DNA of 64,000 nucleotides from Escherichia coli (GTDB lineage Bacteria; Pseudomonadota; Gammaproteobacteria; Enterobacterales; Enterobacteriaceae), in NCBI RefSeq assembly GCF_001677475.2, contig NZ_CP015229.1; one strand, written 5' to 3'. A program made the translations under genes and the position numbers. Positions 1 through 60,783 of the stretch are shown in pieces. Position 1 is the first letter of the stretch; every line of letters begins with the position of its first letter. The notes under the pieces were generated by a model. It had not been told where the DNA came from. It was given only the letters and a program-made list of their open reading frames with translations, and searched no databases.

Positions 1-1348
1 GAGCACCCGATTTTTCCAGCAGATTATTGCGGAAGCCCGCCGCAACACCGTGGCCGACTAGCCACTCCCCGTCGCGCACCTGTCCGGGTGTGGCGTTGCG
101 CTGCTTCCAGCCAAATTTATCCGCTCCGGTGCGCAAGCACTCGATAAGCTGACGGCGAGAGAAGCGGCGCGTCGGGTCGGCGGGGTCAACCTGAGTGTCA
201 TTCAGGATGCGAAACTCGACGGGATCGATGCCCGCTTTTTCCGCCAGTTCGTCGATCGCGATTTCGAGCGCCATCAGACCGGGGGCTTCGCCGGGCGCAC
301 GCATGGCGTTCCCTTCCGGCAAATCAAGCGTGGCGAGCCGCAGGCCGGTATGACGGTTTGCCCCTGCGTAGAGTAATTCGCTTTGCTGTACCGCCGTTTC
401 CGGCGTGCCGCCGGGCAGGTTTCCGGACCAGCTTTCATGTGAGATAGCGGTGATTTTCCCGCTCTGGTCAGCACCGATACGCAAGTGCTGAAGGGTGGCG
501 GGGCGGTGCGTGGTGTTATTGGGAATAGTGGGGCGGGGGAGCATCACTTTAACCGGACGTTTCACCGCACGGGCAGCGAGGGCCGCCAGCAGCGCATCGC
601 TTCTCAGGAACAGCTTGCCGCCAAACCCTCCTCCGATATACGGGGAGATAATACGCACATTCTCCACGGGCACTTTCAGCGTTTTTGCCAGATCGGTGCG
701 GCACCAGTCAATCATCTGATTTGAGGTCCAGAGGGTAAGCTTATTTCCATCCCAGACGGCCATCGAGGCATGTGGCTCCATCGCCATATGGCTCTGGTCC
801 GGGGTCGTGTAGGTAGCATCAATCTTCACCGCAGCGGAGGTGAAAGCCCCGTCAAAGTCACCGACGTTTTTGTCGGGCGTGTCTTCCGGCGGCTGATTGA
901 CGGCCTGTTTTTCGTCCGCCAGGGAGTAAGCTCCTTTATTACGGCGATAGTGCGCCTGCAACAGCGAGGCCGCCGCTCGCGCCTGTTCGAAGGTCTCGGC
1001 CACTACCAGCGCAATGGCCTGATGATAGTGCTCAATAGTGGGGCCGCCTAACAGCCTGGCGGTGTTTTTGTCGCCTTTGTCGAGTGCCCCGGCGTTACTG
1101 GCGGTAATGACAGCCAGTACGCCCGGCGCTTTTTGCGCGGCGTCCGTATCAAGGGCGGTGAGGCGTCCTTTGGCAATGGCGGAACCGACGATATAGCCAT
1201 AGGCGGCGTTGGGGGCTTCTTCATGCCATTCGTAGGCGTAGCGTGCCGTGCCGGTAGTTTTCAGCGGTCCGTCGATGCGGTCATGGGGACGACCGACAAC
1301 CTTCAGCTGATCGATCGGGTTTTCCCCTGCGGGTTTATCAAATTTCAT
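1..1348 (-). CDS. paoC: Periplasmic aldehyde oxidoreductase, molybdopterin subunit PaoC (N-terminal ~449 codons; gene continues beyond the window's 5' edge)
   Basis: Minus-strand frame open from 1348 to the window edge; ATG at 1348..1346 overlaps the paoB stop (ATGA); translation [21 protein letters not shown]... matches recalled PaoC; synteny with paoB/paoA. Confidence 0.85.
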
Positions 1349-2301
1349 GCCTGTGCCCTCGCTTCAGCCAGTACGGAGGCAAGCGTTCGCTTCGCCAACA
1401 GGAGTTTAAAGGTGTTTTCAGCGGTGGGATGGGCGCTGGCGAACAGCGCGTCATATACGGCCTGCGCCCCCTGGGATAGCTGAGCATCCGCAGCCTCAAT
1501 GCGCCAGGGCTTATGTGCTACTCCGCCCAGCGCGACGCGCCCGCTGCCGTCAGGCTGAATAATCGCTGCGACCGATACCAGGGCAAAGGCGTAGGAGGCG
1601 CGATCGCGCACCTTACGGTAAATATGTTTTCCGCCGAGCGGCGGAGGTAATGTCACCGCAACGATAAGCTCACCGGGAAGCAGGGCGGTTTCAATGTGCG
1701 GCGTTTTCCCCGGTGGGTGATAAAAATCAGCCAGTGTGATACTGCGAGTCTTTCCCTCCGGCGTGATGGTTTCCACCACCGCATCCAGCAACCGCATTGC
1801 GACCGCCATATCGCTCGGATGGGTGGCAATGCAGGCTTTGCTTACGCCTACCACCGCGTGCTGACGGCTAAAGCCTTCAAGTGCCGCGCAGCCGCTCCCG
1901 GGCAGGCGCTTATTGCAGGGCTGATTGGTGTCGTAAAAATAGGGGCAGCGCGTGCGCTGGAGCAGATTACCTGCGGTGGTTGCCTGATTACGTAACTGAC
2001 CAGACGCGCCAGCGAGCAGAGCGCGGGAGAGTACCGCGTAATCACGACGCACGCGCTCGTGAGCCGCCAGGTCGGTGTTCCGTACCAGTGCGCCGATGCG
2101 CAGCCCACCCGCGTCGGTCACTTCAATCTTATCGAGCCCGAGCCCGTTCACATCGATAAGGTGGGTGGGCGTTTCAATTTCCAGCTTCATCAGGTCCAGC
2201 AGATTGGTCCCGCCAGCGATAAATTTTGCGCCGGGTACGCGCTGAGCGCTAAGTGCCGCCTCGGCCGGGGTGTTCACTCGTTCATAGGTAAACGCCTTCA
2301 T
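1345..2301 (-). CDS. paoB: Aldehyde oxidoreductase FAD-binding subunit PaoB (318 aa)
   Basis: ORF track 318 aa [20 protein letters not shown]...; start/stop coupling with paoA and paoC. Confidence 0.9.
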
Positions 2302-2987
2302 GATTTTATCTCCCCCGCAGCGTCTTCAATGGCGGCAAGGATGTTAGCGTATGCTCCACAGCGACAGATGTTACCGCTCATACGTTCACGGATCTCATCG
2401 GCCGTTCTTTCTGGAGGGGAAACCAAATCGACCGTGACGTGACTGGGAATGCCGTCCTGAATCTCTTTTAGCACCGCTACTGATGAGCAAATTTGCCCGG
2501 AGGTGCAGTAGCCGCACTGGAAGCCATCATGCTTGATAAAGGCCGCCTGCATGGGGTGAAGATTATCTGGTGAACCCAGGCCTTCAATGGTGGTGATCTC
2601 GGCCCCCAGATGCATGACTGCAAGCGTCAGGCAGGCATTAAGCCTGCGACCATTGACCAGCACGGTACAGGCTCCGCACTGTCCGTGATCGCAACCTTTC
2701 TTGGTACCGATCAGATGCAGATTTTCACGCAAAGCGTCCAGTAGCGTGGTTCGGGTATCCACCTCAAGCTGCTCGGTTTTGCCGTTCACCTTAAGTGTCA
2801 GGGGCATTATCTCTGGCGCGGGTGTAGCTGCCGGAACGCTTGCCGCAAACGTAGAATGAGGATAAACCACGGCGGTCGCCGCCGTTGCGGCGCTCACTTT
2901 AATCAGATCGCGACGGGTCAAACTAAAATCGTGCGGCTCGTGCTTCCCAACCCGATTATCTTCGGGGTATTCGCTTTGGTTGCTCAT
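2298..2987 (-). CDS. paoA: Aldehyde oxidoreductase 2Fe-2S subunit PaoA with Tat signal ([17 protein letters not shown])
   Basis: ORF track 229 aa; twin-arginine motif; Cys clusters CDHGQCGAC and CGYC..C typical of 2Fe-2S ferredoxin subunits. Confidence 0.9.
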
Positions 2988-3404
2988 ACCAGGCCTCCGG
3001 TATTCTAATGGGGAAAATAAGAGTGCGTTGCGAGAGTGCTGATGCTTTTTTAAACGTTAAGCATAGTCGGCGACAGCAGGAGGATTATTCTTAAAACGCG
3101 AATGCAGCTATGAGCCCGGCTAATAAATTCATGTTCGCCGGGATGTTGATGATGATGGGAGCTGGTTTATTGCTTTAGTTGTACGATGCAAAAACCGATA
3201 AGGAAACCTGTGATTGTCAGCTCTGCATCACCCTGCAAATCTTTGTCACTTCTAATATAAAAATATGGAGAAATGATGGTGCTTATATTCATTGGCGATT
3301 AGGAAACCATCTTGTTATACAAAACAATACAGTTCTTTACATTTGCTTTGTTTTATGAATACTCCTAAAGAGGTGTATAACATAATGGTACAAGCAGGGT
3401 AGAT

Positions 3405-4019
3405 ATGAATATATTTGAACAAACTCCACCGAACCGCAGACGTTACGGTCTTGCTGCATTCATTGGGCTGATTGCTGGCGTTGTTTCCGCATTTGTGAAG
3501 TGGGGGGCTGAAGTTCCATTGCCGCCACGTAGCCCGGTGGATATGTTTAATGCAGCGTGTGGCCCGGAATCATTAATCAGGGCTGCTGGGCAAATTGATT
3601 GCTCCCGTAATTTTCTCAATCCTCCGTATATTTTTCTTCGGGATTGGTTGGGGCTGACAGATCCAAATGCGGCTGTTTATACCTTCGCCGGGCATGTCTT
3701 TAACTGGGTTGGTGTAACGCACATAATCTTTTCGATAGTTTTTGCCGTTGGTTACTGTGTGGTCGCCGAAGTATTTCCGAAAATTAAACTTTGGCAGGGT
3801 TTACTGGCAGGTGCTTTAGCCCAACTTTTTGTTCATATGATTTCTTTCCCTCTCATGGGACTGACGCCACCTCTGTTTGATCTTCCGTGGTATGAGAATG
3901 TCTCTGAAATTTTTGGACATTTAGTCTGGTTCTGGTCTATTGAAATTATTCGCAGAGATTTACGAAACAGAATTACTCATGAGCCAGACCCTGAGATCCC
4001 TTTAGGCTCAAACAGATAA
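3405..4019 (+). CDS. yagU: Inner membrane protein YagU (DUF1440)
   Basis: ORF track 204 aa [25 protein letters not shown]...; hydrophobic segments. Confidence 0.85.
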
Positions 4020-4032
4020 TGTAATGAATGAT

Positions 4033-4063
4033 AAAAATGGCGCAAATACAGCGCCATTTTTAT
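4033..4063 (+). terminator. Rho-independent terminator downstream of yagU
   Basis: Hairpin AAAATGGCGC-aaataca-GCGCCATTTT followed by TTTTTAT. Confidence 0.6.
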
Positions 4064-4207
4064 AGGTTAAAAACATTGCTTTTTATATTCTGATGCAGCT
4101 AGTCAGTGAGCATATCGCGCCACTTCAGGATGATGTAGATCCGAAGAACGCTACAGAAGAGAGGCATTGTTGCTGGCAAATAGAAGAAGTTTCGGGTTTT
4201 GTTGCCC

Positions 4208-4243
4208 CTAAAAACGAAGCCCCGCTATTACAGTAGGCGGGGC
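4208..4243 (-). terminator. Rho-independent terminator downstream of ykgJ
   Basis: Stem GCCCCGC/GCGGGGC (4219-4225 / 4237-4243); on the minus strand the hairpin is followed by TTCGTTTTTAG. Confidence 0.55.
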
Positions 4244-4265
4244 AGTGCAATTAATTATTGCATAT

Positions 4266-4595
4266 TTATAACGGTGTCAGCCCGTATTTAGCTCTTGCAC
4301 GATTGCAAGCCTCATTGACTTCTCCATTTTCACCAGACATGGCGAATTCTCTGCATGTGGACGATCGATTTTTATATATCGTGCAGCAGGCATTTTTGCC
4401 CGGGGTTCCTGCAAGGGCAATACATCGGGGGTTTTTCTGATTGGTACCGCTCATGCATCGGTGAAAAGGGGATATTTGTTCAGTGAGCCTGGCGGGAATG
4501 GTACCGCCAGCATCGTCGGCTTCGGCCCAGTAAAAAGAGACGCGGAAAAATGCACAACAGGCACCACACGTCATGCATGGATTCAGATTGCTCAT
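4266..4595 (-). CDS. ykgJ: YkgJ, Cys-rich putative zinc/iron-chelating protein
   Basis: ORF track 109 aa [31 protein letters not shown]... Confidence 0.85.
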
Positions 4596-4907
4596 AATTC
4601 ACCAGTACAGCTATAAATCGTAAAGAGAACAGCGGTACATCGTATGTAAGAACGTACCGCGGTTGGCTGGTGAACTTTCGATAGTGTGAGTATTGAATGA
4701 TTTCCAGCCGTTACCGATTTTACGTACTAATTCGTGAAGAAACCACTCGTTAGCAGGCTGCCTGGTACCTTTCCGTGTCTCCTGAACACTATGGTGTACA
4801 TATGAGAAAGCCCATCATTACAGGTGACATTGACGATCGCTTCCACATTATTTAAACGATTTTTGAGTCTCTGAGGTGGAATTCTTCCCTCGACCGATGG
4901 ATAAGTA

Positions 4908-5618
4908 TCAGTCCGCCGAAGGGGGCTTAGCCGGACAGGAATTGCTAATCTTAATGAATTTGTCGTTATAGACCAGATAATGATTCCCCGGCTGACGTAA
5001 CTCAGGCTGATGAACCACGTCTCCCGGACGTAGATACCAGGCGTCGCCTTCCTCTTCGGTCGAATCACATCCTGGTTTAATCAGTAGCTTAAACCACGTG
5101 TTGCCGGTGTTACTTACCGTTCCTGTCACCTGGTCGAAGGACCATTTAAACTGAACCTGACGTGGTCGTACTACCAGAATGGTATCCATCACCACCACCG
5201 GCTCCGTGCTGACCTCGCCGCCGGTTGGGCTGCGTCTTGTCTGGTTACGAGTGGGGACCTCGCGAAATGAGACCCGGTAGTAGCGCTCGCGGTTATCCCG
5301 TGGCCCATGATAGTAAAATTTAAAATACTCGCTCTCACCAGCCTGCAACGCCAGCTGGCGGGGGGCGAAAAGCAGTTCACCATCCACCGGTCGGGTGCGC
5401 AATTCACTGCTGCCTGGGCTATCAATAGCACTGATGGAAATACGGTATATCCGTGCGCTTTTGTTGTTATTCACTACACGTTTGCTGACAAAGTCAGACT
5501 CGGACGGCAGCGAAAATGTCAGATTGCCGACCGAAATCGCCTGTGTCAAAGGTGCCGCCAGCATACAGACCGCTGTCAGCAGGGCCTTAGTTAATGTTAC
5601 GCCACGTCGCCTGAACAT
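4908..5618 (-). CDS. ecpE: E. coli common pilus chaperone EcpE
   Basis: ORF track frame 4908..5663; start chosen at the internal Met ([14 protein letters not shown]..., 236 aa, signal-peptide-like); overlaps the ecpD 3' end. Confidence 0.8.
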
Positions 5619-7230
5619 GAATTTCTCCTGAAGCGCTGACTTCGCCAAACCAGCCGTTATCATCTATCGTACGCAGCGAAATGGCGTTATCCATTGGAAT
5701 CGAAAATTTGACTGTGGTCTTATCCATCTGCCCCACTTCGCCAGAGATATCAGTCCACGGTGTGGTCAGCCACAGCGCATCGGTCATATCCCGCCAGCTA
5801 TCATCGCACCCGGCATCGTAGGTTTTTGTAGCTCCGTTGCGGGTAATAAAGGAAAGCGTCGCCGGGAACGGTACTTTCGCCTTACCGTCATCGGAGCTGA
5901 AGACACAATAGGAGCGCCCGCCAATCACCTGCGCGGGTCCGGTCACCTTGATCAGCACTTCGTCGGCAGCTGTTTTACCGCTGGTGGTTACGATATAGCC
6001 GAAATCGAGTGCCGACTCGCCGCTGCCGACATATCCCTCCCGCGACGGTGTCTGAGTATATTCATCGGAGATAATACTGATGCTGAAATCACGGGGTTTG
6101 ATAAGCAGCGTGTTGGAGGTAGAAAATTCATACCAGCCAGACTCCGGTGATGTGGTGTTCTGAAAGCGAAAGTTGAACAGATCTTTGGTGTTGATATCGC
6201 TGATCCCGAGGTTCACCATCTGCTTAAAGAAGTTGCTCGAGAAGAAAACATAGATCGAGTCTGCGCTCTTCATCTCGTTGAAGGTGTAGTAATAGGCAGT
6301 ATTGCTCACCGGTTTCCATGAACTGCCATTCAGACTGAACTGCATATCGTACGCCCCGACGGCCGAGGCTAACGACGAGTTGGCGATCGCCGGGAATATA
6401 TGGATTGAGGTGTTGCTGAGTCCGTTTGTTTGCAGGGTGTAGTTGACCATCTTACAACTTAATCCTGAAAGGCTGCCGATGGTTTGTGTCCGGCAGTCGG
6501 CGTTCCCTTCGCCCAGAGTCGGTACTCCGTCGCTGTTGATAAATACCTCCGCCAGCGAGTGGGTATTTATTAACCGCAGATTTGCTGCTTTCGTATGGGT
6601 GACGTTGCGAACATACCAGTTGCCGGAGGCCTGATCCTTACAGCGTGCGCCGCTGCTGGCGTCATAGTTCACAGAGGTCTGGCAGGCATTGATGGTCATT
6701 GTAAAGCTGCTGCCGACGGGCATTTGTTGCATATACTGGTAAAACGCGTCTGACAACATGCCGTGCATCCACTTCGCGCCGCCGCTGGTCACCGTCGCGC
6801 CATAAAATCCACTGGCGTCGGTGGTTTGCGGCAGGATAAGACTGGTGGTCATATTACACCCTGCGTACCAGTTGATGCAGCGTAAGCCAGTTAAAGGAGA
6901 TGATACCGGCGAATTTTCCAGCCACATATCAAACTTCCAGTTGGTATAGAGGCCGGTGTTGTAACCGTTATCAATGTAGCCGAGGCTTTGCTGATAAATG
7001 GTTCCTGAGCCAGTGTATTTTAAACCGGTCCAGCGGTTAGCACCGGTCAGGCGCGGATCCAGCGCCCCGCCAGGCGTGACGAAAAAGTTGTCGTCTGAGT
7101 TGTTTTCGACAAACACAAACTCGCTTGCCGGTGCATCCGCCCAGGTTGTTTTGCTCACTGCAGCTCTGAGCGCGGTTGCTGGCCAGATTAACGCAAATAT
7201 TATCATCGCTATCAGTAGGTTAACTCTCAT
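5587..7230 (-). CDS. ecpD: E. coli common pilus tip adhesin EcpD
   Basis: ORF track 547 aa [23 protein letters not shown]...; operon synteny. Confidence 0.85.
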
Positions 7231-9745
7231 TCTCTTCTCCTGTCTGCTTCACGGCTGCCCACGATGAGAGGCCGCTGCAGACCACATCACCGACCCAGAC
7301 GGCACCGCGCGCCTGGTTGAGTTCCAGTGCCACTTCGCAGGTTTTATTGCCACTGTAGCGAAAATCGATAGTGGGGTATTTCTTGTCCACATCCATGACA
7401 AACTCGCCGTTTTCATCGGTTCGGGTTCGGCCGATATGGTTGTTAATCCGTGCGTTAGCCAGCAGTGTGCCGTCTTCCGCACGGATACGGCCGGAGACGG
7501 TAACCATCTGCTTCACCTCTGGCTCAATGACAGCGACATTGCCTGGATAGAGAGTCAGATGACTTTTGCGGCCGCTGACGATATCGTAACTGTCGAGTGA
7601 GTTTTTGCTGTTCTGTAACTCCACCTCATATCTTCCATAGGGAGAGAGCGGGAGATAGTTACGCTTGCCGTTAAGCGGGAAAATCCGCCCGTTGATTTTG
7701 GCGCTGATCTGACCGTCGTCCTCCAGCCCTGTGTTGAATATCACCCCAGCGTTGCCATCAGTCCGCCCGCTGGCAGCAATGTTTTTACCCTGCCAGCCGA
7801 CGCTGCCATTGGCGGTCAAGTTGGTATTGACGTAGCCGTCCGCCGCGCTATTGACGTTCAGCGTTCCGCTGGCGTAACGAGCGTCGAACTGTGCATACGC
7901 CCCACCGCTGAGGGTTTTGTCATCACCGGTATCGCCGGAGATGGCACGTGACAGATTGGCACCAACAGTGCGAATGGTTCCTTCATCAAACTGTTTGCGT
8001 GCTGACAGGTTTGCCATGGTGTAGCCGTTTTGATGGGTCATCCCTGCGCTAAACCAGTTGCCCAGTGGGAGCGAGAGATCGAGAGCGATATATTTCCCGG
8101 TATTGGCGTTGCTGTCGCCGTTGTTATAGCGCTGAATACCGGCCCGCAGGCCAAGCGAACCAAAGTTACCGCTGTAGACATTTTGATAGTAATCTGCTGT
8201 GTAATAATGGTTGTTGTAACGGCGGTCATCATTGTAGCTGATGCTGAATGTGCCCAGCTTCGACCACAGTGAGTTCAGGTTGAGTGTGCCGCCGATAGCA
8301 CGGTTGTCGGCATCGCTACGTCGCAATTGATTGCCAATGCGGGTTTTTTCCTGATTAACCCACAGCGAACTAAAGCCTCCCGGTAGAGTGGCGCTGATGC
8401 TGCCGATGCTGCTCCATGAGCTGTCACTGGCCAGCATATTTTGCAGGTTAACGTTGATTGCCCCCCCAAGCGGCAGCGTCAGACGGGTTTCACCCACCGC
8501 CTGATTATCGTATCCATATCCCGTTGCCGCCCAGCTAAGCGTACTCAATGAGCCGGAGGTCGAGGCACCTGCTAGCCAACTCTCTTTAGCTGGTCGCGTC
8601 TTTTTCCCGTTTTCCGACCAGCGATCCATATGAAAGCTACCGCCCCATATCTGCCACGCCAGTGGTGCACCGACTCCGCGCCCCCGGCTAAACAGCTTAT
8701 TGACCCGCTGGGTGCGTTTGCTGATCACGCGACCATTAACGATCACCTCAACTTCCACATCGTAAATACCGTACGGTAGACCCCGGGTATCCACTTCATG
8801 ATTGCCCATGGTGAAGTTCTGAACGCTTAGTAGCCGCCCATCACGGGTGAGATGTACTTCACCCGCCGCCGGTAAAAAGGCGATCACTGGCGTGGCAGAC
8901 TGGCTGCTGTCGAAGATGGTGGAGCTGGCCTGGTTTCCCCAGGAAAGGCCGTAAATCTTTCCTGCTGAAATGGCGGTCATCGGCCCTAAGGACTGCAAGT
9001 TCCAGGTGTCGAGCATTCCACCGGCAAATCGGTGACCGGCAAAATCGCGTTCGTACATCGCTTTATATAATTCACTGTCCTGTTGACCGCTACCGATCCC
9101 ATACAGCGAGCCGTCGAGCACCACGTGATGTTCGCGCAGCGCAGTAACGTTATTCAGCGACAGATAGCTGGATGTGTTGCTCCCGCCGTTACGCAACTGG
9201 TTGTTATAGACGCCGAAGTTATAGCTCAGATTACTGCTGAGGGTGTTAACACTGGACTGCCCGATGTCTTCGCTACGTGAGCGTAGTACGGTGCCCAGCG
9301 CTTCGCGCTTGACCACCAGCTGCAGCAGCAGTTGGCGCAAGCTGAGATCCAACTGCGCGTTGTCAGTCAGGGGGATGGTAAGGGCCTCATTGAACGGGGC
9401 GTTCGCCAGAGCCATCAGCTGCTGTCGAGTTTGTTCGCTGACACTGGCGTTATCTTCACTCTCTTCCAGCTGTATTTTCCGGATGCGTAGCTGTCCATCA
9501 TCCAGCCAGATAAAAGCGCTGCCGATTCGCTGATCGTCCTGGCGACCCTGGCTACCGGCGAGATGAATATAGAGCGGGACGCTCATGCCGTCCTGAAGCG
9601 CCTGACTGAAGGCCTGCGGAATAATCACCCCACCTATTTGCTGCGCACTTATGTCAGCAGCGCTGGCATCGGGTTGAACGAACAAAAAGACCATGCCGAA
9701 GGCAAACTGGGCTTTCAGTCCTGGGGAGAACCGTCGTAAAGGCAT
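7220..9745 (-). CDS. ecpC: E. coli common pilus usher EcpC
   Basis: ORF track 841 aa; 11-nt overlap with ecpD. Confidence 0.85.
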
Positions 9746-51663: not shown

Positions 51664-51685
51664 CATGCAAAGTGCGCGTTGTCTC

Positions 51686-51860
51686 TGCCGGATGCGGCGT
51701 GAACGCCTTATCCGGCCTACGAGTGGCGCAAGAACCTGTAGGCCTGATAAGCGTAGCGCATCAGGCATTTTTCACGATTGCCGGATGCGGCGTGAACGCC
51801 TTATCCGGTCTACGAATGGCACAAGAATCTGTAGGCCTGATAAGCGTAGCGCATCAGGCA
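51686..51860. repeat. REP/BIME cluster: two tandem copies of an ~80-bp unit (copies differ at a few positions), each holding a pair of inverted REP sequences
   Basis: GATGCGGCGTGAACGCCTTATCCGG(C/T)CTACGA(G/A)TGGC(G/A)CAAGAA(C/T)CTGTAGGCCTGATAAGCGTAGCGCATCAGGCA occurs twice in direct orientation. Confidence 0.85.
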
Positions 51861-51909
51861 ATTTGGCGTTGGTCATAACCCCATCACCCTCTGTAGCGGA
51901 CATAACAAT

Positions 51910-52869: not shown

Positions 52870-54252
52870 ATGAAAGAAAGCAATAGCCGCCGTGAGTTTC
52901 TGAGCCAGAGCGGTAAGATGGTCACCGCCGCCGCGCTGTTTGGTACCTCTGTGCCGCTCGCCCATGCGGCAGTCTCTGGCACAACCCACTGCGAGGCAAA
53001 TAACACCATGAAAATCACTGACCCGCACTACTATCTCGACAACGTGCTGCTGGAAACCGGTTTTGACTACGAAAACGGTGTGGCGGTGCAGACCCGCACG
53101 ACACGCCAGACCGTGGAGATTCAGGACGGCAAAATTGTTGCCCTGCGCGAGAATAAGCAGCATCCGGACGCCACGCTGCCGCACTATGACGCTGGCGGTA
53201 AGCTGATGCTGCCCACCACCCGCGACATGCATATTCATCTCGACAAAACCTTCTACGGCGGGCCGTGGCGCTCGCTCAATCGTCCGGCAGGCACCACCAT
53301 CCAGGACATGATCACGCTTGAGCAGAAAATGCTGCCGGAGTTGCAACCGTACACTCAGGAGCGGGCGGAAAAACTGATCGATTTATTGCAGTCGAAAGGC
53401 ACCACCATTGCCCGTAGCCACTGCAATATCGAACCGGTTTCCGGCCTGAAAAATCTGCATAACTTACAGGCGGTGCTGGCACGACGTCAGGCGGGCTTCG
53501 AGTGTGAAATTGTCGCCTTCCCGCAGCACGGTTTACTGCTGTCGAAATCGGAGCCCTTAATGCGTGAAGCGATGCAGGCAGGGGCGCATTACGTCGGCGG
53601 GCTGGACCCGACCAGTGTCGATGGCGCGATGGAAAAATCCCTCGACACCATGTTCCAGATTGCGCTGGACTACGACAAAGGCGTCGATATTCACCTGCAC
53701 GAAACCACTCCGGCGGGCGTGGCAGCCATCAATTATATGGTTGAAACGGTAGAGAAAACGCCGCAGCTTAAAGGCAAGCTGACCATCAGCCACGCCTTTG
53801 CGCTGGCTACGCTCAACGAGCAACAGGTCGTTGAGCTGGCGCACCGGATGGCGGCGCAGCAAATTTCTATCGCCTCGACGGTGCCGATTGGCACGTTGCA
53901 TATGCCGCTCAAACAGCTACACGACAAAGGTGTAAAAGTGATGACCGGCACCGACAGCGTTATCGACCACTGGTCGCCTTACGGCCTGGGCGACATGCTG
54001 GAAAAAGCCAATCTGTATGCGCAGCTCTATATTCGCCCTAACGAACAGAATTTGTCCCGCTCGCTGTTTTTAGCCACTGGTGATGTGTTGCCGCTCAACG
54101 AAAAGGGCGAGCGTGTCTGGCCTAAAGCGCAGGATGACGCCAGCTTTGTGCTGGTGGACGCCTCCTGTTCTGCCGAGGCAGTGGCGCGTATCTCGCCGAG
54201 AGCCGCAACGTTCCATAAAGGGCAACTGGTGTGGGGGAGTGTGGCAGGTTGA
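52870..54252 (+). CDS. yahJ: Amidohydrolase-family deaminase YahJ with Tat-type signal
   Basis: ORF track 460 aa; SRREFLSQSGKMVTAAALFGTSVPLAHA. Confidence 0.8.
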   Translation: MKESNSRREFLSQSGKMVTAAALFGTSVPLAHAAVSGTTHCEANNTMKITDPHYYLDNVLLETGFDYENGVAVQTRTTRQTVEIQDGKIVALRENKQHPDATLPHYDAGGKLMLPTTRDMHIHLDKTFYGGPWRSLNRPAGTTIQDMITLEQKMLPELQPYTQERAEKLIDLLQSKGTTIARSHCNIEPVSGLKNLHNLQAVLARRQAGFECEIVAFPQHGLLLSKSEPLMREAMQAGAHYVGGLDPTSVDGAMEKSLDTMFQIALDYDKGVDIHLHETTPAGVAAINYMVETVEKTPQLKGKLTISHAFALATLNEQQVVELAHRMAAQQISIASTVPIGTLHMPLKQLHDKGVKVMTGTDSVIDHWSPYGLGDMLEKANLYAQLYIRPNEQNLSRSLFLATGDVLPLNEKGERVWPKAQDDASFVLVDASCSAEAVARISPRAATFHKGQLVWGSVAG

Positions 54253-54549
54253 TACGCATTTAATATGTCTGCAACGGTGAACAGTAAGAGATTTAAGCCC
54301 CAGGGAGTGGGGCGGCAATGGTTGCTAATGAATCATCCTGAACTTTATAATCTCCAGGCATAATTTCCAGGGGATTATTTGAGAGAAATACACAAAAGTG
54401 AGTTTTAACAAAGGTATTTATCAGGCCATAAATGTGACCTGCTTCGGATAAAAAAGATTAAACATAGAAAAACCAATGATACTCTTGCTGATGGTTACCA
54501 ACAGTAATTAAGATGTGATTTGTTTTTCCGTAATCGCGAAAATATTCTC

Positions 54550-54960
54550 ATGACCATAAAAGAAAAAATCTTACAAAAATATCCCCATGCTTCCTTTTGT
54601 ACTTTTGGCGATTCAGCAGCGTTGGCCGATCACCTCGCAACGTTGATTGCGACTGGTGTTAAAACTGCTTCCTGTGGTTCGCTGGCGGGATGTATTGAAG
54701 ACAACGCATTTCCGCTGATTGGTGAGTATAAGATTGTAGAAAATAGCCGTGGTGAGCCTGTCTGTGTTATCAGAGTTATTGGCCTGCATTTACTGCGCTT
54801 TTCTGATGTCACCGCGGAGCTTGCCCGTAAGGAAGGTGAAGGTGACCTCAGTCTTGAATATTGGCGTAATGAACACCGTCGTTTTTTCCAGGCAGAAGGA
54901 AGCTATTCACCAGAAATGGACGTTATCTTTGAAGAATATGCCCTTATTGACGTTGTGTAG
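54550..54960 (+). CDS. Small ASCH/PUA-like domain protein (accessory)
   Basis: ORF track frame 54520..54960; start at MTIKEKILQKYPHA; weak family assignment from ...GVKTAS... Confidence 0.45.
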   Translation: MTIKEKILQKYPHASFCTFGDSAALADHLATLIATGVKTASCGSLAGCIEDNAFPLIGEYKIVENSRGEPVCVIRVIGLHLLRFSDVTAELARKEGEGDLSLEYWRNEHRRFFQAEGSYSPEMDVIFEEYALIDVV

Positions 54961-55210
54961 ATATCTATTTATCTACGTGAAATAAGCTCACAAACATAAA
55001 ATGTCGCTAATTTTGTTTATCTTGCTATTTTTTACGTGATGAATATCACACTTATTGTTGCTGCCCGTTTTGTCCATATTTATAACCATATTTTTAATAG
55101 CTGCCTGAAATAGGGCTGTTTATTCTGCATAAAAATATTCGAAAATTCTTATTCTCTCCAGCGCGCTAATTTGGGCGAACACTTCCTGACTACCCTGCAA
55201 TGAGGCTGAA

Positions 55211-56197
55211 ATGATGAATAAACGTTTTGTTATCAATATGGTGTCTTCGCTGTTATTAGGCGCTGCGCTAATTTCTGCGCCGCTCCAGGCAGCGGAAAAA
55301 GTCGTGGTGAATATCTCTAAAGTCGATGGTATGCCGTGGTTTAATCGCATGGGCGAAGGTGTGGTCGAGGCGGGTAAAGCCTTTGGTGTTAATGCGTCAC
55401 AGGTGGGGCCTTCAAGTACTGATGCTCCGCAACAGGTTAAAATCATTGAGGATTTAATCGCCCGTAAGGTTAATGCAATTACTATTGTGCCAAACGATGC
55501 CAACGTGCTGGAACCGGTATTCAAAAAAGCGCGAGATGCCGGAATTGTGGTTCTGACCAACGAATCCCCCGGTCAGCCAAGTGCTAACTGGGATATCGAA
55601 ATCATTGATAACGAAAAATTTGCCGCTGAATATGTTGAGCATATGGCGAAACGCATGGGTGGCAAGGGCGGTTATGTGATTTACGTGGGTAGTTTGACCG
55701 TGCCGCAGCATAACTTATGGGCTGACTTGCTGGTGAAATACCAGAAAGAGCATTACCCGGATATGCATGAAGTTACCCGCCGCATGCCGGTTGCCGAGAG
55801 TGTGGATGACTCACGTCGTACCACACTGGACCTGATGAAAACCTATCCTGACTTGAAAGCGGTTGTCTCCTTTGGTTCAAACGGTCCGATTGGCGCGGGA
55901 CGTGCGGTGAAAGAGAAACGGGCGAAAAATAAAGTCGCAGTCTATGGCATGATGATCCCTTCACAGGCGGCATCACTGATTAAAAGTGGTGATATCACCG
56001 AAGGGATTACTTACGATCCGGCCTCTGCAGGTTACGCACTCGCAGCCGTCGCCAGCACGTTGCTGAAGGGTGAAGAGATCAAACCTGGATTAGAAATGCA
56101 GAATCTGGGTAAGGCCGACGTAGATATGGATAAGCGAATTATCCGTTTCCATAAGGTATTACTGGTCAACAAAGACAATATCGACTCACTTTATTAA
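55211..56197 (+). CDS. Periplasmic sugar-binding protein of an ABC transporter (LsrB/RbsB-like)
   Basis: ORF track 328 aa; signal peptide; C-terminus ...NKDNIDSLY resembles LsrB-type binding proteins. Confidence 0.75.
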   Translation: MMNKRFVINMVSSLLLGAALISAPLQAAEKVVVNISKVDGMPWFNRMGEGVVEAGKAFGVNASQVGPSSTDAPQQVKIIEDLIARKVNAITIVPNDANVLEPVFKKARDAGIVVLTNESPGQPSANWDIEIIDNEKFAAEYVEHMAKRMGGKGGYVIYVGSLTVPQHNLWADLLVKYQKEHYPDMHEVTRRMPVAESVDDSRRTTLDLMKTYPDLKAVVSFGSNGPIGAGRAVKEKRAKNKVAVYGMMIPSQAASLIKSGDITEGITYDPASAGYALAAVASTLLKGEEIKPGLEMQNLGKADVDMDKRIIRFHKVLLVNKDNIDSLY

Positions 56198-56245
56198 TCC
56201 ATTTCTTCGGGGCGAAAGCCCCGATTCTTATTGCCAGGGGATGTT

Positions 56246-57730
56246 ATGGAAACCTTCCTTTCCCTTCGTCATATCAACAAAACGTTTCATGCCACGCGAG
56301 CGCTGCGCGATGTTTCTCTCGACTTTATGTCGGGTGAAGTGCACTGCCTTGCCGGGCAAAACGGCTGTGGTAAATCGACGTTGATTAAAATTATGTCCGG
56401 TGTTTATCGCCCGGATGAGGGAGCGGAAATTACGCTTGGTGGAAAAAACTGGTCAAAGCTGACACCCGCCGCTTCGGTGGCGCAGGGGATTCAGGTGATT
56501 TATCAGGACCTCTCTTTATTTCCTAACCTGAGTGTCTGGGAGAATATCGCCGTGAATCACTATCACCACGGTCTGTTTGTTAACCGCCGTCGTCTGCGTG
56601 AGGTGGCGCAGGTGGCAATGACCAGTATTAACGTCACATTGCCACTGGATACGCTCGTTTCTGAGCTTTCAATTGCCCGCTGTCAGCTGGTGGCAATTTG
56701 CCGTGCACTGGCGCAGGACGCACGGTTGATCGTGATGGATGAACCAACCGCTTCGCTGACCCATCAGGAAGTGCAAGGGTTATTACAGGTGGTGCATCAA
56801 TTGCGGGAACGTGGGATCTGCGTGGTTTTCGTCAGTCATCGTCTGGAAGAAGTGATGGAAGTTTCCGACCGTATTTCAGTGCTGAAAGATGGTGAGCTGG
56901 TCGGGACTTTTCCGGCTGCAGAGATGACCACAAAACAACTCGGTTTCCTGATGACCGGCCAGGAGTTTGAATATCAGGTGCGAGAGTTGTGGCAGGGAAA
57001 ATCCAGCACCCCAGTGCTGGAGGTGCGTAATTTAAGTCGTCATGGGGAATATCAAAATATTAACTTGCGGGTGGAAGCGGGCGAAGTGGTGTCGATTGTT
57101 GGCCTGCTTGGTGCGGGGCGCACGGAATTATGTCTGAGTCTGTTTGGTATGACCCGACCGGATGCTGGCGAGATCCTCATCAACGGCCAGCCGGTTACAC
57201 TGCAAAGTAACCAGGACGCCATCCGCCACGGTATTGGTTATGTTTCGGAAGATCGCATGTCGCGCGGTTTGGTGATGGCGCAATCTATTGAAGACAACAT
57301 CATTAGCACTGTTTTTCACAAGGTAAAAGATCGCTTCGGCTTTCTGAGTGAAGCTAAAGTGCGAGACCTGGTGGACAGGCTAATCAAGGCATTGACCATC
57401 AAAGTCTCTGATCCTCATCTCCCGGTGAATACGCTTTCTGGTGGTAACGCGCAGCGAGTATCGATCGCCAAATGGCTGGCGATTGGGCCACGACTGTTGA
57501 TTCTCGATAGCCCGACAGTCGGTGTTGATATCGCCAACAAAGCAGGAATATACGGCATTATCAGCGATCTGGCGGCTCATGGCATTGCGGTATTGATGAT
57601 CTGCGATGAAATTGAAGAAGCGTGGTATCAAAGCCACCGGATTTTGGTAATGCAAAAAGGTCAGATCACCCATAGCTTCCTGCCTGACAGCAGTTCTCAG
57701 GCCAGGATTGCGGAGGTGGTAAATGGCTGA
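56246..57730 (+). CDS. Sugar ABC transporter ATPase with two nucleotide-binding domains (LsrA/RbsA-like)
   Basis: ORF track frame 56231..57730; Walker A GQNGCGKST and a second P-loop GLLGAGRTE; start at METFLSL preceded by AGGGG. Confidence 0.8.
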   Translation: METFLSLRHINKTFHATRALRDVSLDFMSGEVHCLAGQNGCGKSTLIKIMSGVYRPDEGAEITLGGKNWSKLTPAASVAQGIQVIYQDLSLFPNLSVWENIAVNHYHHGLFVNRRRLREVAQVAMTSINVTLPLDTLVSELSIARCQLVAICRALAQDARLIVMDEPTASLTHQEVQGLLQVVHQLRERGICVVFVSHRLEEVMEVSDRISVLKDGELVGTFPAAEMTTKQLGFLMTGQEFEYQVRELWQGKSSTPVLEVRNLSRHGEYQNINLRVEAGEVVSIVGLLGAGRTELCLSLFGMTRPDAGEILINGQPVTLQSNQDAIRHGIGYVSEDRMSRGLVMAQSIEDNIISTVFHKVKDRFGFLSEAKVRDLVDRLIKALTIKVSDPHLPVNTLSGGNAQRVSIAKWLAIGPRLLILDSPTVGVDIANKAGIYGIISDLAAHGIAVLMICDEIEEAWYQSHRILVMQKGQITHSFLPDSSSQARIAEVVNG

Positions 57731-58694
57731 ACTGAAAAAACGCCATGAATTCTGGCTGGCATTACTGATTGTGGTGCTGTTTGTTGGCCTTGCCTGGCGC
57801 AGCGACGAGTTTCTGACATTCGGTAATTTGTACGATCTCGCCAATAACTATGCCATGTTGACTATTCTCGCCTGTGGTTTGTTTGTGGTGTTAATTTCCG
57901 GTGGGATTGATATTTCGTTTCCGGCAATGACCATCATTGCGCAATACGGCATGGTGCTGTTGCTGCAAAAAATTGGTGGCAACTTTGCTGTCGCGTTTGC
58001 CCTGGCGGGCGGCATCGGCATTTTACTTGGCTTAATAAACGCCTTACTGGTTAATCGCCTACGGGTGCCGTCTATCATCATCACCATTTCGACGCTGAAT
58101 ATTTTCTATGGCCTGCTGTTATGGTTGAGTAAAGGTGTGTGGCTGTACGACTTTCCGCCGTGGTTTGAGCAGGGGGTAATGTTGTTCAAGTACACCGATG
58201 CTGACGGCTATGACTATGGCCTTGGTCTGCCGCTGATCGCCATGATTACGGTGGTGCTGCTGACAGCGTTTATCATGAATTTCACCAGTGTAGGGCGCAA
58301 AATTTATGCCCTTGGCGGGAATCGTGAATCAGCCAGTCGCATCGGCTTTAGTGTGCTGAAACTGCAACTTTTCGTCTACGGCTATATGGGATTGATGTCT
58401 GGTGCTGCGGGTGTAGTGCAGTCGTGGACGGTGATGACTGTCGCCCCCGATTCTCTTCTGGGTTATGAGCTGACAGTACTGGCTGCGGTGGTGCTTGGCG
58501 GCACTAGTTTGCTCGGCGGGCGCGGCACGTTAACCGGTACTTTGCTCGGCGTGGTGTTGTTGGCAGTGATGCAAAACGGGCTAAATTTATTGGGAGTCTC
58601 GTCTTACTGGCAAACATTGATCACAGGCATCATCATCGTTGCCAGCATTAGCGCCACGGCGTGGAGTCAGCATCAGAACCGGAGTCTGCTATGA
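57723..58694 (+). CDS. ABC transporter permease (RbsC/LsrC-like)
   Basis: ORF track 323 aa, polytopic membrane protein. Confidence 0.8.
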   Translation: MAELKKRHEFWLALLIVVLFVGLAWRSDEFLTFGNLYDLANNYAMLTILACGLFVVLISGGIDISFPAMTIIAQYGMVLLLQKIGGNFAVAFALAGGIGILLGLINALLVNRLRVPSIIITISTLNIFYGLLLWLSKGVWLYDFPPWFEQGVMLFKYTDADGYDYGLGLPLIAMITVVLLTAFIMNFTSVGRKIYALGGNRESASRIGFSVLKLQLFVYGYMGLMSGAAGVVQSWTVMTVAPDSLLGYELTVLAAVVLGGTSLLGGRGTLTGTLLGVVLLAVMQNGLNLLGVSSYWQTLITGIIIVASISATAWSQHQNRSLL

Positions 58695-59647
58695 AAAAAT
58701 CGTGGCGTAATAACGTTGAGTTTTACTTGATCGGCCTGCTGGTACTAACTGTTGCCGCCTTCAGCATTACTATGCCGGAGATTTTCTGGTCGATAAGTAA
58801 TTTCCAGTCCGTCGCTTCGCAAATGCCCGTGCTGGGCATTCTGGCGTTGGCTATGGCGGTGACCATGCTTTGCGGTGGCATTAACTTGTCAATTATTGCC
58901 ACTGCTAACGCCTGTTCACTGGTGATGGCGTGGGTGGCGACTCAGTATCCACCGGGTATTGCTACGGTTGTCGCTACGCTGCTGGCGGGCGCTGGCGCGG
59001 CGGTGATAATCGGTTTATGTAACGGCGTATTGATTGCTGGTATTCGAGTGTCGCCAATTCTTGCAACGCTTGGGATGATGACATTGCTCAAAGGGGTAAA
59101 TATTCTGGTGACAGGCGGTAGCGCCATTGCCAATTATCCCTCATGGGTGCTGTGGTTGAATCATGCACAGTGGTTCGGTATTCCGCTACCGATGTGGTTG
59201 TTTACCGCAGTGGCGCTGGGGCTGTGGATATTGCTGGAGAAAACGCCGCTCGGTAAAGCCATTTATCTGATTGGTTCTAACGAACGAGCAACACTTTACT
59301 CCGGTATTAACACTCGTCGGGTGCTGATATGGGTGTATGTCATTTCCGCCTTGCTTTGTGCGGTAGCGGCATTTTTGATGATGTCGAAACTCAACTCGGC
59401 TAAGGCCTCTTATGGCGAATCGTACTTGCTGGTGTCAATCCTCGCGGCAGTACTCGGCGGGGTTAATCCGGACGGCGGCAGCGGGCGGATAATTGGTATG
59501 GTGCTGGCGCTGTTTCTTCTGCAAATTATTGAAAGCGGCTTCAATATTCTCGGTATAAGCCCCTACCTGACGATGGCCTTATGGGGAACGTTGCTGCTCT
59601 GTTTCATTCAGGCTCGCGGCATGTTGGGGCTGGATCGGGTGGTTTAA
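58691..59647 (+). CDS. ABC transporter permease (RbsC/LsrD-like)
   Basis: ORF track frame 58661..59647; start at MKKSWRNNV overlapping the upstream stop (ATGA). Confidence 0.8.
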   Translation: MKKSWRNNVEFYLIGLLVLTVAAFSITMPEIFWSISNFQSVASQMPVLGILALAMAVTMLCGGINLSIIATANACSLVMAWVATQYPPGIATVVATLLAGAGAAVIIGLCNGVLIAGIRVSPILATLGMMTLLKGVNILVTGGSAIANYPSWVLWLNHAQWFGIPLPMWLFTAVALGLWILLEKTPLGKAIYLIGSNERATLYSGINTRRVLIWVYVISALLCAVAAFLMMSKLNSAKASYGESYLLVSILAAVLGGVNPDGGSGRIIGMVLALFLLQIIESGFNILGISPYLTMALWGTLLLCFIQARGMLGLDRVV

Positions 59648-59733
59648 ATATTGGCTATATTCAATGGACGCGTTTTGCCGCGATGACATATCAGGCATCG
59701 CCAAATACACATAGCTAATCAGGAGTAAACACA

Positions 59734-60783
59734 ATGAAGATCAAAGCTGTTGGTGCATATTCCGCTAAACAACCACTTGAACCGATGGATATCACCCGGC
59801 GTGAACCGGGACCGCATGATGTCAAAATCGAAATCGCTTACTGTGGCGTCTGCCATTCCGATATCCACCAGGTCCGTTCCGAGTGGGCGGGGACGGTTTA
59901 TCCCTGCGTGCCGGGCCATGAAATTGTAGGGCGCGTGGTAGCTGTTGGTGATCAGGTAGAAAAATATGCGCCGGGCGATCTGGTTGGTGTCGGCTGCATT
60001 GTCGATAGTTGTAAACATTGCGAAGAGTGTGAAGACGGGCTGGAAAACTACTGTGATCACATGACCGGCACCTATAACTCGCCGACGCCGGACGAACCGG
60101 GCCATACTCTGGGCGGCTACTCACAACAGATCGTCGTTCATGAGCGATATGTTCTGCGTATTCGTCACCCGCAAGAGCAGCTGGCGGCGGTGGCTCCTTT
60201 GTTGTGTGCAGGGATCACCACATACTCGCCGCTACGTCACTGGCAGGCCGGGCCGGGTAAAAAAGTGGGCGTGGTCGGCATCGGCGGTCTGGGACATATG
60301 GGGATTAAGCTGGCCCACGCGATGGGGGCGCATGTGGTGGCATTTACCACTTCTGAGGCAAAACGCGAAGCGGCAAAAGCCCTGGGGGCCGATGAAGTTG
60401 TTAACTCACGCAATGCCGATGAGATGGCGGCTCATCTCAAGAGTTTCGATTTCATTTTGAATACAGTAGCTGCGCCACATAATCTCGACGATTTTACCAC
60501 CTTGCTGAAGCGTGATGGCACCATGACGCTGGTTGGTGCGCCTGCGACACCGCATAAATCACCGGAAGTTTTCAACCTGATCATGAAACGCCGTGCGATA
60601 GCCGGTTCTATGATTGGCGGCATTCCAGAAACACAGGAGATGCTCGATTTTTGCGCCGAACATGGCATCGTGGCTGATATAGAGATGATTCGGGTCGATC
60701 AAATTAATGAAGCCTATGAGCGAATGCTGCGTGGTGATGTGAAATATCGTTTTGTTATCGATAATCGCACACTAACAGACTGA
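59734..60783 (+). CDS. yahK: Zn-dependent NADPH aldehyde reductase YahK
   Basis: ORF track 349 aa; GVCHSD zinc motif and GIGGLGH NAD(P)-binding motif. Confidence 0.9.
   Translation: MKIKAVGAYSAKQPLEPMDITRREPGPHDVKIEIAYCGVCHSDIHQVRSEWAGTVYPCVPGHEIVGRVVAVGDQVEKYAPGDLVGVGCIVDSCKHCEECEDGLENYCDHMTGTYNSPTPDEPGHTLGGYSQQIVVHERYVLRIRHPQEQLAAVAPLLCAGITTYSPLRHWQAGPGKKVGVVGIGGLGHMGIKLAHAMGAHVVAFTTSEAKREAAKALGADEVVNSRNADEMAAHLKSFDFILNTVAAPHNLDDFTTLLKRDGTMTLVGAPATPHKSPEVFNLIMKRRAIAGSMIGGIPETQEMLDFCAEHGIVADIEMIRVDQINEAYERMLRGDVKYRFVIDNRTLTD

Follow-up and report, generated by a model that had tools for sequence, protein, structure and literature searches.

An intact aauABCD D-ribulose importer between yahJ and yahK of Escherichia coli, predicted to carry an AraC/CRP operator and very probably deleted in K-12

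In a stretch of Escherichia coli DNA of 64,000 nt (hereafter the window), five intact open reading frames (ORFs), all located on the + strand in the ORF list of the window, lie between yahJ and yahK. We found that the last four of them (55211-59647) are very probably aauABCD, the published ABC importer of the CUT2 family, which is induced by L-arabinose through AraC and depends on AraB, and that the block is very probably an old resident of this site which was deleted in K-12. Judged by its sequence, the window copy is an ordinary intact member of a known and experimentally characterized system, which was reported for the first time in 2024 under the name Aau, standing for accessory L-arabinose uptake (PMC11127945). 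A first-pass annotation of the same DNA had left the puzzle of a transporter with an unknown substrate, no regulator and no kinase, and this puzzle was answered experimentally in 2024-2025. The Aau system matters for gut colonization by enterohemorrhagic E. coli (EHEC), of which a Δaau mutant was outcompeted in the streptomycin-treated mouse gut (PMC11127945). What the present analysis adds is a corrected direction of the event, with a deletion-scar history that points to loss in K-12 rather than gain elsewhere; the coordinates of a predicted P_BAD-like operator, its conservation across families and its linkage to araC; and the setting apart of an uncharacterized ASCH-domain gene from the transporter.

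The binding protein provides the most direct evidence for this identification. AauA of the window is identical at 327 of 328 positions to PDB entry 9I1M, the AauA of EHEC (E = 4e-214), and the sole difference, D200 in the window versus V in 9I1M, falls on a non-contact position at which Klebsiella likewise has D. In the crystal structure of AauA, alpha-D-ribulose lies between W43 and H167 and is hydrogen-bonded to K37, E118, E196 and S223 (PMC12307932), and all six of these contacts are kept in the window protein. The dissociation constants (Kd) reported for EHEC AauA are 1.98 µM for D-ribulose and 598 µM for L-arabinose (Cottam et al., Nat Commun 2025, PMC12307932). The order of genes at the yahJ/yahK site (substrate-binding protein, ATPase, permease, permease) also matches the published Aau locus, which in EHEC comprises the substrate-binding protein Z0415, the ATPase Z0416-7 and the permeases Z0418/9 within island OI-17 (Cottam et al., Nat Commun 2024, PMC11127945). 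The flanks are the same, RefSeq annotates these five genes at the identical site in O157:H7 and other E. coli, and the promoter region matches the O157 and AR_0013 copies save for one base of the CRP spacer. The substrate had been described in the first-pass annotation as unknown, a statement that no longer holds given the near identity of AauA to a D-ribulose-binding protein. Among the candidates proposed there, a pentose-type sugar was a fair guess, whereas autoinducer 2 (AI-2) fails on identity, binding residues and model score, and rhamnose on model score, as detailed below.

The make-up of the four genes is that of the CUT2 family (TC 3.A.1.2): a Peripla_BP_4 binding protein, a two-domain ATPase of ~500 amino acids and two BPD_transp_2-type permeases. 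AauB could be aligned end to end with the AraG, XylG and RbsA models, and its NCBIfam scores against AraG, YtfR, XylG and RbsA ranged from 375 to 424 bits, every one of them under the equivalog cut-off. The permeases AauC and AauD matched the AraH, RbsC and LsrC/D models, and again no equivalog cut-off was reached. The aauB and aauC genes overlap by 8 nt and aauC and aauD by 4 nt (ATGA), a pattern typical of one operon. A terminator scan gave no hit after yahJ, after the ASCH gene or between aauD and yahK, and no RNA family turned up when the complete block was scanned with Rfam. These results agree with the initial description of five genes between yahJ and yahK, of a complete sugar-type ABC importer with its binding protein first (PF13407 in Pfam, and CUT2-type matches of the ATPase and permeases in NCBIfam), and of the lack of any kinase or regulator adjoining the transporter, which has yahJ and the ASCH gene on one side and yahK on the other. 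The term 'five-gene' insert is correct as to the number of genes present and misleading as to their organization, which is one plus four, with the ASCH gene separate from the transporter.

It is the cited papers that show ligand binding, induction, the need for AraC and phosphorylation by AraB. The aau promoter responded to L-arabinose only, and its induction was abolished in a ΔaraC strain and restored on complementation (PMC11127945). D-ribulose was used only in the presence of L-arabinose, under which condition Aau is turned on by AraC, and D-ribulose, once imported, is phosphorylated by AraB (PMC12307932). For the window copy, the following scheme may be proposed: in the periplasm, AauA would bind alpha-D-ribulofuranose tightly and L-arabinose only weakly, the channel would consist of AauC and AauD, and AauB would supply ATP hydrolysis. 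AraC bound to L-arabinose and cAMP-CRP would together switch on the operon via the P_BAD-like operator at 55035-55099, and the L-ribulokinase AraB would phosphorylate the imported D-ribulose, feeding it into the pentose phosphate pathway. No local regulator or kinase is found because these roles fall to AraC and AraB, which belong to the core ara regulon and work in trans.

The label used in the first-pass annotation and the RefSeq/PGAP naming of AauA as an 'autoinducer 2 ABC transporter substrate-binding protein' both suggest an Lsr-like importer of AI-2. The form of AI-2 bound by LsrB is a substituted furanose that resembles ribulofuranose, which counts for such a role. The two systems also share the CUT2 ABC family and the Peripla_BP_4 fold class, and AauA gave a weak match to the NCBIfam LsrB model (111 bits, cut-off 384). 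However, AauA is only 27.8% identical to LsrB (5GTA), and the six positions of AI-2 contact read K, E, Q, H, F and S in AauA versus K, D, D, Q, P and A in LsrB, so that one of six is kept. For comparison, the published definition of LsrB asks for more than 63% identity together with K35, D116, D166, Q167, P220 and A222 (PMC3386761), from which AauA departs in identity and residues, and its model score lies far under the cut-off. The order of genes differs as well, with the binding protein first in aau and lsrACDB in the lsr operon, a contrast the first-pass annotation had rightly drawn; no lsrK, lsrR, lsrF or lsrG was linked to aau, whose only neighbours are those named above; and the operon is induced by arabinose (PMC11127945). 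An AI-2 importer is thus extremely improbable, and the Lsr AI-2 transporter was ruled out on the identity and the residues. The label 'LsrB/A/C/D-like' is valid at the superfamily level and not beyond it. Since AauA falls short of LsrB in identity, residues and model score alike, the RefSeq product name is misleading and, to judge from these comparisons, is probably a misannotation carried across thousands of genomes. The rhamnose transporter RhaSTPQ was also ruled out, as AauA scored 136.7 bits against the RhaS model TIGR02637, under its cut-off of 342 bits.

The published aau papers demonstrate AraC dependence and describe no binding site (PMC11127945, PMC12307932). The operator and promoter positions given here, like the evolutionary history discussed later, are deductions of the present analysis. 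An AraC half-site matrix was built from the five half-sites of the araC-araBAD control region; the sequence used for this region agreed with real genomes at 100% identity along 296 nt lying between araC and araB. A tandem I1+I2 pair upstream of aauA and oriented towards it scored 19.5, the best value on both strands of the 64 kb window (next best 15.0). The predicted arrangement (Table 1) resembles P_BAD and the AraC regulon (araFGH, araE) in the order CRP, I1, I2, in the 21-bp periodicity and in the placement of I2 20-21 nt before the -10 hexamer, and dependence on L-arabinose and AraC has been published for aau as well (PMC11127945). On the other hand, the CRP-to-I1 offset is 27 bp in aau versus 29 bp in P_BAD, the distance from I2 to the -10 hexamer is 21 nt versus 20 nt, and the sugar that Aau transports with the highest affinity is not the inducer, a difference from the AraC regulon. 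The motif TTTAyTCT is conserved in the aau promoters of Klebsiella and Franconibacter.

To examine this layout more broadly, we scanned one genome per species, which gave 80 loci encoding AauA relatives, and considered as Aau-type those with an AauA at least 65% identical. At a strict threshold, the CRP, I1, I2 layout was present in 37 of 59 Aau-type loci and in none of 20 loci of the Rbl type (described below), as compared with 2 of 1,933 random 309-nt pieces. A CRP-to-I1 offset of 27-28 bp recurs in the orthologous promoters of other genera.

Table 1. Coordinates of genes, predicted regulatory sites and deleted stretches in the window
Feature	Position	Strand	Evidence or remark
yahJ, amidohydrolase family, left flank	52870..54252	+	NF005312 711 bits, cut-off 447; annotated in K-12, O157, AR_0013
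Stretch missing in K-12-type allele only, ~0.6 kb	54314..54905	.	takes the ASCH promoter candidate and ~118 codons
ASCH promoter candidate, TTGCTA, 18-nt spacer, TATAAT	54322..54351	+	sigma-70 consensus scan, 10/12
ASCH-domain gene, 136 aa, YhfF/COG4405 type	54550..54960	+	PF04266 E = 4e-22, 79 bits
Candidate CRP site cGTGAtgaataTCACA	55035..55050	+	9/10 consensus positions; 27 bp upstream of I1
Stretch missing in scar allele (K-12-type, Escherichia sp. E2593), ~4.5 kb	55058..59575	.	breakpoints good to ~10 nt
AraC I1-like half-site TGCCCGTTTTGTCCATA	55062..55078	+	matrix scan
AraC I2-like half-site TAACCATATTTTTAATA	55083..55099	+	matrix scan; 21 bp from I1
Candidate -10 hexamer TATTCT	55121..55126	+	begins 21 nt after I2; inferred
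aauA, 328-aa periplasmic D-ribulose (weakly L-arabinose) binding protein	55211..56197	+	PF13407; match to 9I1M
aauB, 494-aa fused two-domain ABC ATPase, intact	56246..57730	+	NCBIfam AraG, YtfR, XylG, RbsA matches
aauB codon 87, CAG, intact	56504-56506	+	O157:H7 copy (L002 5251-5253) has TAG, Q87*
aauC, permease	57723..58694	+	AraH/RbsC-like model matches; annotated in O157:H7 and others
aauD, permease	58691..59647	+	RbsC/LsrD-like model matches; annotated in O157:H7 and others
yahK, NADPH-dependent aldehyde reductase, right flank	59734..60783	+	profile models; annotated in K-12, O157, AR_0013

The four-gene order is kept in Klebsiella, Franconibacter, Mangrovibacter, Aeromonas, Yersinia, Providencia, Budviciaceae, Pasteurellaceae and Vibrio. 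Klebsiella pneumoniae has a complete aauABCD cassette with a ~92% identical AauA orthologue (PDB 3D02) and a conserved CRP/AraC operator, although its chromosomal neighbourhood is not that of Escherichia; 3D02 is a structural-genomics entry deposited as a 'putative LacI-type regulator', and a literature search on it found no published function. An orthologue of araC (491 bits, cut-off 208) directly adjoins the cassette in 26 loci. The order araA-araB / araFGH-araC-aauABCD was observed in Budvicia and Limnobaculum, whereas araC and araB come after the cassette in Providencia. In Pasteurellaceae, a unit made of araC-aauABCD and an FGGY kinase stands between the ascorbate (ula) genes and yiaJ/yiaK genes. 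Overall, the conserved P_BAD-like operator spans Enterobacteriaceae, Yersiniaceae and Pasteurellaceae, and araC is joined to the cassette in Pasteurellaceae, Budviciaceae, Providencia and some Vibrio. Since both the linkage to araC and the operator are conserved across cassette loci, AraC control seems to have come down with the cassette and not to be an invention of EHEC. On balance, we lean towards Aau being an ancestral member of the AraC/CRP regulon rather than an acquired EHEC island, its patchiness being due to one old deletion of ~4.5 kb, today present in about half of the genomes, that was spread or sorted among lineages. If this is true, L-arabinose as the signal for ribulose uptake would be the original design.

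Two observations on individual cassette loci may be added. The Pasteurellaceae FGGY kinase lies directly after aauD, is 534 amino acids long and matches XylB weakly (99.6 bits; L042, L047, L049, L051-L054, L057-L061 and L076), which makes it a candidate dedicated ribulokinase. One 4.7-kb contig labelled 'MAG: Bacteroidales bacterium' (SFEK01000152.1, L004) encodes AauABCD 99-100% identical to those of the window; it almost certainly stems from Escherichia and was binned by mistake into a Bacteroidales metagenome-assembled genome (MAG).

A further group of loci (L062-L083) is of the Rbl type. Their binding proteins are 58-61% identical to AauA and have all six of its pocket residues, and a pentulose kinase (TIGR01315) and an SIS isomerase accompany them. 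In this they match the Rbl system described for Citrobacter rodentium (PMC12307932). Rbl-type loci resemble Aau in the four-gene transporter layout and in the six pocket residues common to both, but differ in having their own FGGY pentulose kinase (RblK) and SIS isomerase and in being without the CRP/AraC operator. Neither an FGGY kinase nor an SIS isomerase of this type was present among the ORFs of the window block.

These loci also bear on the possibility that the real role of the system is the scavenging of L-arabinose, as the name Aau implies, with D-ribulose binding being incidental. Such a role would fit with induction solely by L-arabinose through AraC (PMC11127945), with the conserved AraC/CRP operator and with the location of the cassette beside araC, araFGH and araBA in Budviciaceae and Providencia. 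However, AauA binds L-arabinose more than 200-fold less tightly, and it is D-ribulose that was seen in the crystal (PMC12307932); the six contacts are identical in the Rbl-type proteins, whose operons hold a pentulose kinase; and the Pasteurellaceae cassette has an FGGY kinase of its own behind it and no isomerase, which fits a ketopentose substrate. We consider L-arabinose scavenging as the real role to be unlikely, and retain D-ribulose import.

With regard to the history of the block, it is missing from K-12, as the first-pass annotation had stated. The yahJ-yahK spacer of MG1655 is only 376 bp long, RefSeq annotates a partial pseudogene there, and the finding that was named in advance as a refutation, namely the same genes between yahJ and yahK in K-12, was not obtained, as only remnants of them occur in this spacer. 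It holds the 61 bases that directly follow yahJ; the end of the ASCH gene (~16 codons and stop) with 22 further bases; a degraded version of the sequence that reaches as far as the right half-site for CRP; and the last ~24 aauD codons and stop with the 86-bp aauD-yahK spacer. A global alignment of the K-12 spacer gave spurious middle pieces of 4-13 nt, and we trusted three BLAST blocks together with the CRP-region remnant of a three-way alignment. A second scar was found in Escherichia sp. E2593, which has yahJ, an intact ASCH gene, a deletion of the transporter within ~10 nt of the K-12 breakpoints, and yahK, and which is ~95% identical to the window across yahD-yahJ and ~89% across yahK. Both scars keep the sequence to just past the CRP-site remnant and resume in the last ~24 codons of aauD. 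Because the K-12 scar holds remnants of ASCH and aauD and E2593 has the same transporter deletion, the block appears to be an old resident that was later lost; K-12 is the deleted form, and the earlier view of an insert in the window strain had the event reversed.

The distribution of the two alleles was then considered. The full block was present in 2,211 of 5,426 complete E. coli genomes and the contiguous scar allele in 2,759 of them, which together account for 92%. Scar copies diverge by up to ~5% among genomes, and the block occupies the same site in lineages that are 5-12% diverged. An Escherichia species representative (L031) with 87-90% nucleotide identity has aauABCD next to yahK; it has lost yahD-yahJ as well as the 5' portion of ASCH, at a different endpoint. 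The most plausible course of events would start from an ancestral arrangement yahJ-ASCH-aauABCD-yahK at this Escherichia site, from which a deletion of ~4.5 kb (about 55058-59575) would have taken the AraC operator and aauA to aauD'. A further deletion of ~0.6 kb (about 54314-54905) would then have cut off the 5' portion of ASCH in the K-12-type allele, and intact and deleted alleles would both have persisted for a long time.

Alternatively, the locus could be a recently gained island of this lineage and EHEC, in which case the K-12 site would be ancestral and empty. The wording of the authors ('horizontally acquired', 'O-island'; PMC11127945), the patchy distribution in E. coli, the low GC content of the ASCH region (39-42%) and the lack of synteny in Klebsiella all agree with such an origin. 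However, the allegedly empty site holds in-frame 3' remnants of ASCH and aauD including a stop codon, and both the divergence of the scar and the presence of the block at the same site in diverged lineages indicate considerable age. The GC content of aauA-D is ordinary (49-53%, near the genome average). No integrase, transposase or tRNA target was found among the window ORFs at the block, and its boundaries are without direct repeats, including those that had been expected to mark an insertion at 54253-54520 and 59648-59733. The picture of a recently acquired island is not supported, and we regard it as improbable.

Several points weigh against our reading of the locus as an AraC/CRP-controlled D-ribulose importer of long residence. 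The AraC and CRP sites were predicted with a matrix built on five sites, I2 is weak (7.6 bits), and about one-third of the orthologous promoters fail the strict threshold, most of them from Yersinia, in which the layout is present with lower scores. The D-ribulose function ascribed to this allele is carried over from the EHEC protein through sequence identity, and the sugar imported under physiological conditions could be another than the one bound best in vitro. The lineage of the window is itself only ~96-97% identical to complete E. coli genomes. As for the history, the deletion junction of K-12 departs by a few nucleotides from that of E2593, and two independent deletions at nearly one place are possible; the authors' term 'horizontally acquired' (PMC11127945) and the absence of this synteny from Klebsiella count here as well, and an ancient transfer into Escherichia is possible.

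Some additional features of the deletion region should be mentioned. A 25-nt inverted match of 80% identity connects the 3' end of yahJ (54199-54223) and the 3' end of aauD (59576-59600), and its right arm (59576) begins where the retained sequence of K-12 and E2593 resumes; this match is probably due to chance. In L031, positions 1-8000 upstream of aau are rearranged, with blocks corresponding to 15.7-16.7, 22.5-23.5, 27.9-31.2 and 44.3-45.5 kb of the window joined together (window 15741-45479). Since these blocks are rearranged and yahD-yahJ are absent, the yah neighbourhood is thus a deletion hotspot across the genus. Another locus (L091), with an ASCH protein 74% identical, was at first taken for a distant species; it was dropped from this role and given little weight, being ~94.5% identical at the DNA level with many frameshifts that are probably assembly errors.

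The ASCH gene requires separate consideration. The closest solved structures to its product are 1T62 and 3S9X, both without assigned function, and homologues of 136 amino acids with ~50-65% identity are spread over Enterobacterales in unrelated contexts. The gene has its own AT-rich upstream region. The promoter candidate in Table 1 was the only match in this region, and the evidence for it is weak, as shuffled sequence gave a mean of 2.8 matches. ASCH proteins can be N4-acylcytidine amidohydrolases (PMC6972931, PMC9599836), and a preprint gives K21, T24 and E74 (R26) as the catalytic set of YqfB. The window protein resembles the YqfB-type amidohydrolases in the ASCH fold (PF04266) and in the motif G-x-K-T-x-S/T, which reads GVKTAS, but it has 136 amino acids versus 103 in YqfB and C-G in place of I-R26. 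When the motif GVKTASCG was compared by eye, the Lys was kept, a Ser stood at the position of Thr24 and there was no Arg26. BLASTP gave no alignment between the ASCH protein and YqfB. By analogy, the gene may encode an N4-acyl-cytosine or N4-acyl-cytidine amidohydrolase.

One might suppose that the ASCH gene works together with the four transporter genes as a fifth component, which would for example process an imported modified pentose or nucleoside. The gene adjoins the transporter on the same strand in E. coli, and the deaminase-like amidohydrolase encoded by the neighbouring yahJ, together with the amidohydrolase activity noted above for ASCH proteins, could be seen in the same light. However, no ASCH gene was found near any of the other ~75 cassette loci, and the homologues of Kosakonia and Yersinia stand alone in unrelated neighbourhoods. 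In the window, a spacer of 250 bp containing the predicted aauA operator separates the two genes. Loss has also been independent, with ASCH present without aau in E2593 and aau present without an intact ASCH gene in L031, and the published Δaau phenotype and its complementation did not need the ASCH gene (PMC11127945). A fifth component is therefore highly unlikely. Because the gene does not accompany the cassette outside Escherichia and is lost or kept independently of aau, we treat it, from its distribution, as a separate and dispensable unit apart from the transporter.

Besides D200 of AauA, a difference between the window and the EHEC locus concerns aauB. The O157:H7 ATPase gene is annotated as two genes, Z0416 and Z0417, because its codon 87 has changed from CAG to TAG (Q87*), whereas aauB of the window is intact. 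The exact O157-type 61-mer with the Q87* stop was identified in ~139 of 2,218 aau-positive complete genomes. The published EHEC phenotypes came from a strain with this split ATPase.

Finally, the surroundings of the block were compared with complete E. coli genomes. Over the 24 kb of window positions 30000-54000, where the bet and yah genes and the two large autotransporter genes ehaA and hyxB are located, the best complete genome was only 96-97% identical, and the aau block itself was 98.7% identical to the best one. In view of the former value, the window comes from a divergent or poorly sampled Escherichia lineage. Between yahG and yahI, positions 51664-51909 contain tandem palindromic units similar to repetitive extragenic palindromic (REP) sequences or bacterial interspersed mosaic elements (BIME), with repeated translations CRMRRERLIRPT...CRPDKRSASG in several frames and a cross-match between 51685-51767 and 51779-51863. 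The K-12 gene 'yahH', which is annotated inside this repeat region, looks like a doubtful gene.

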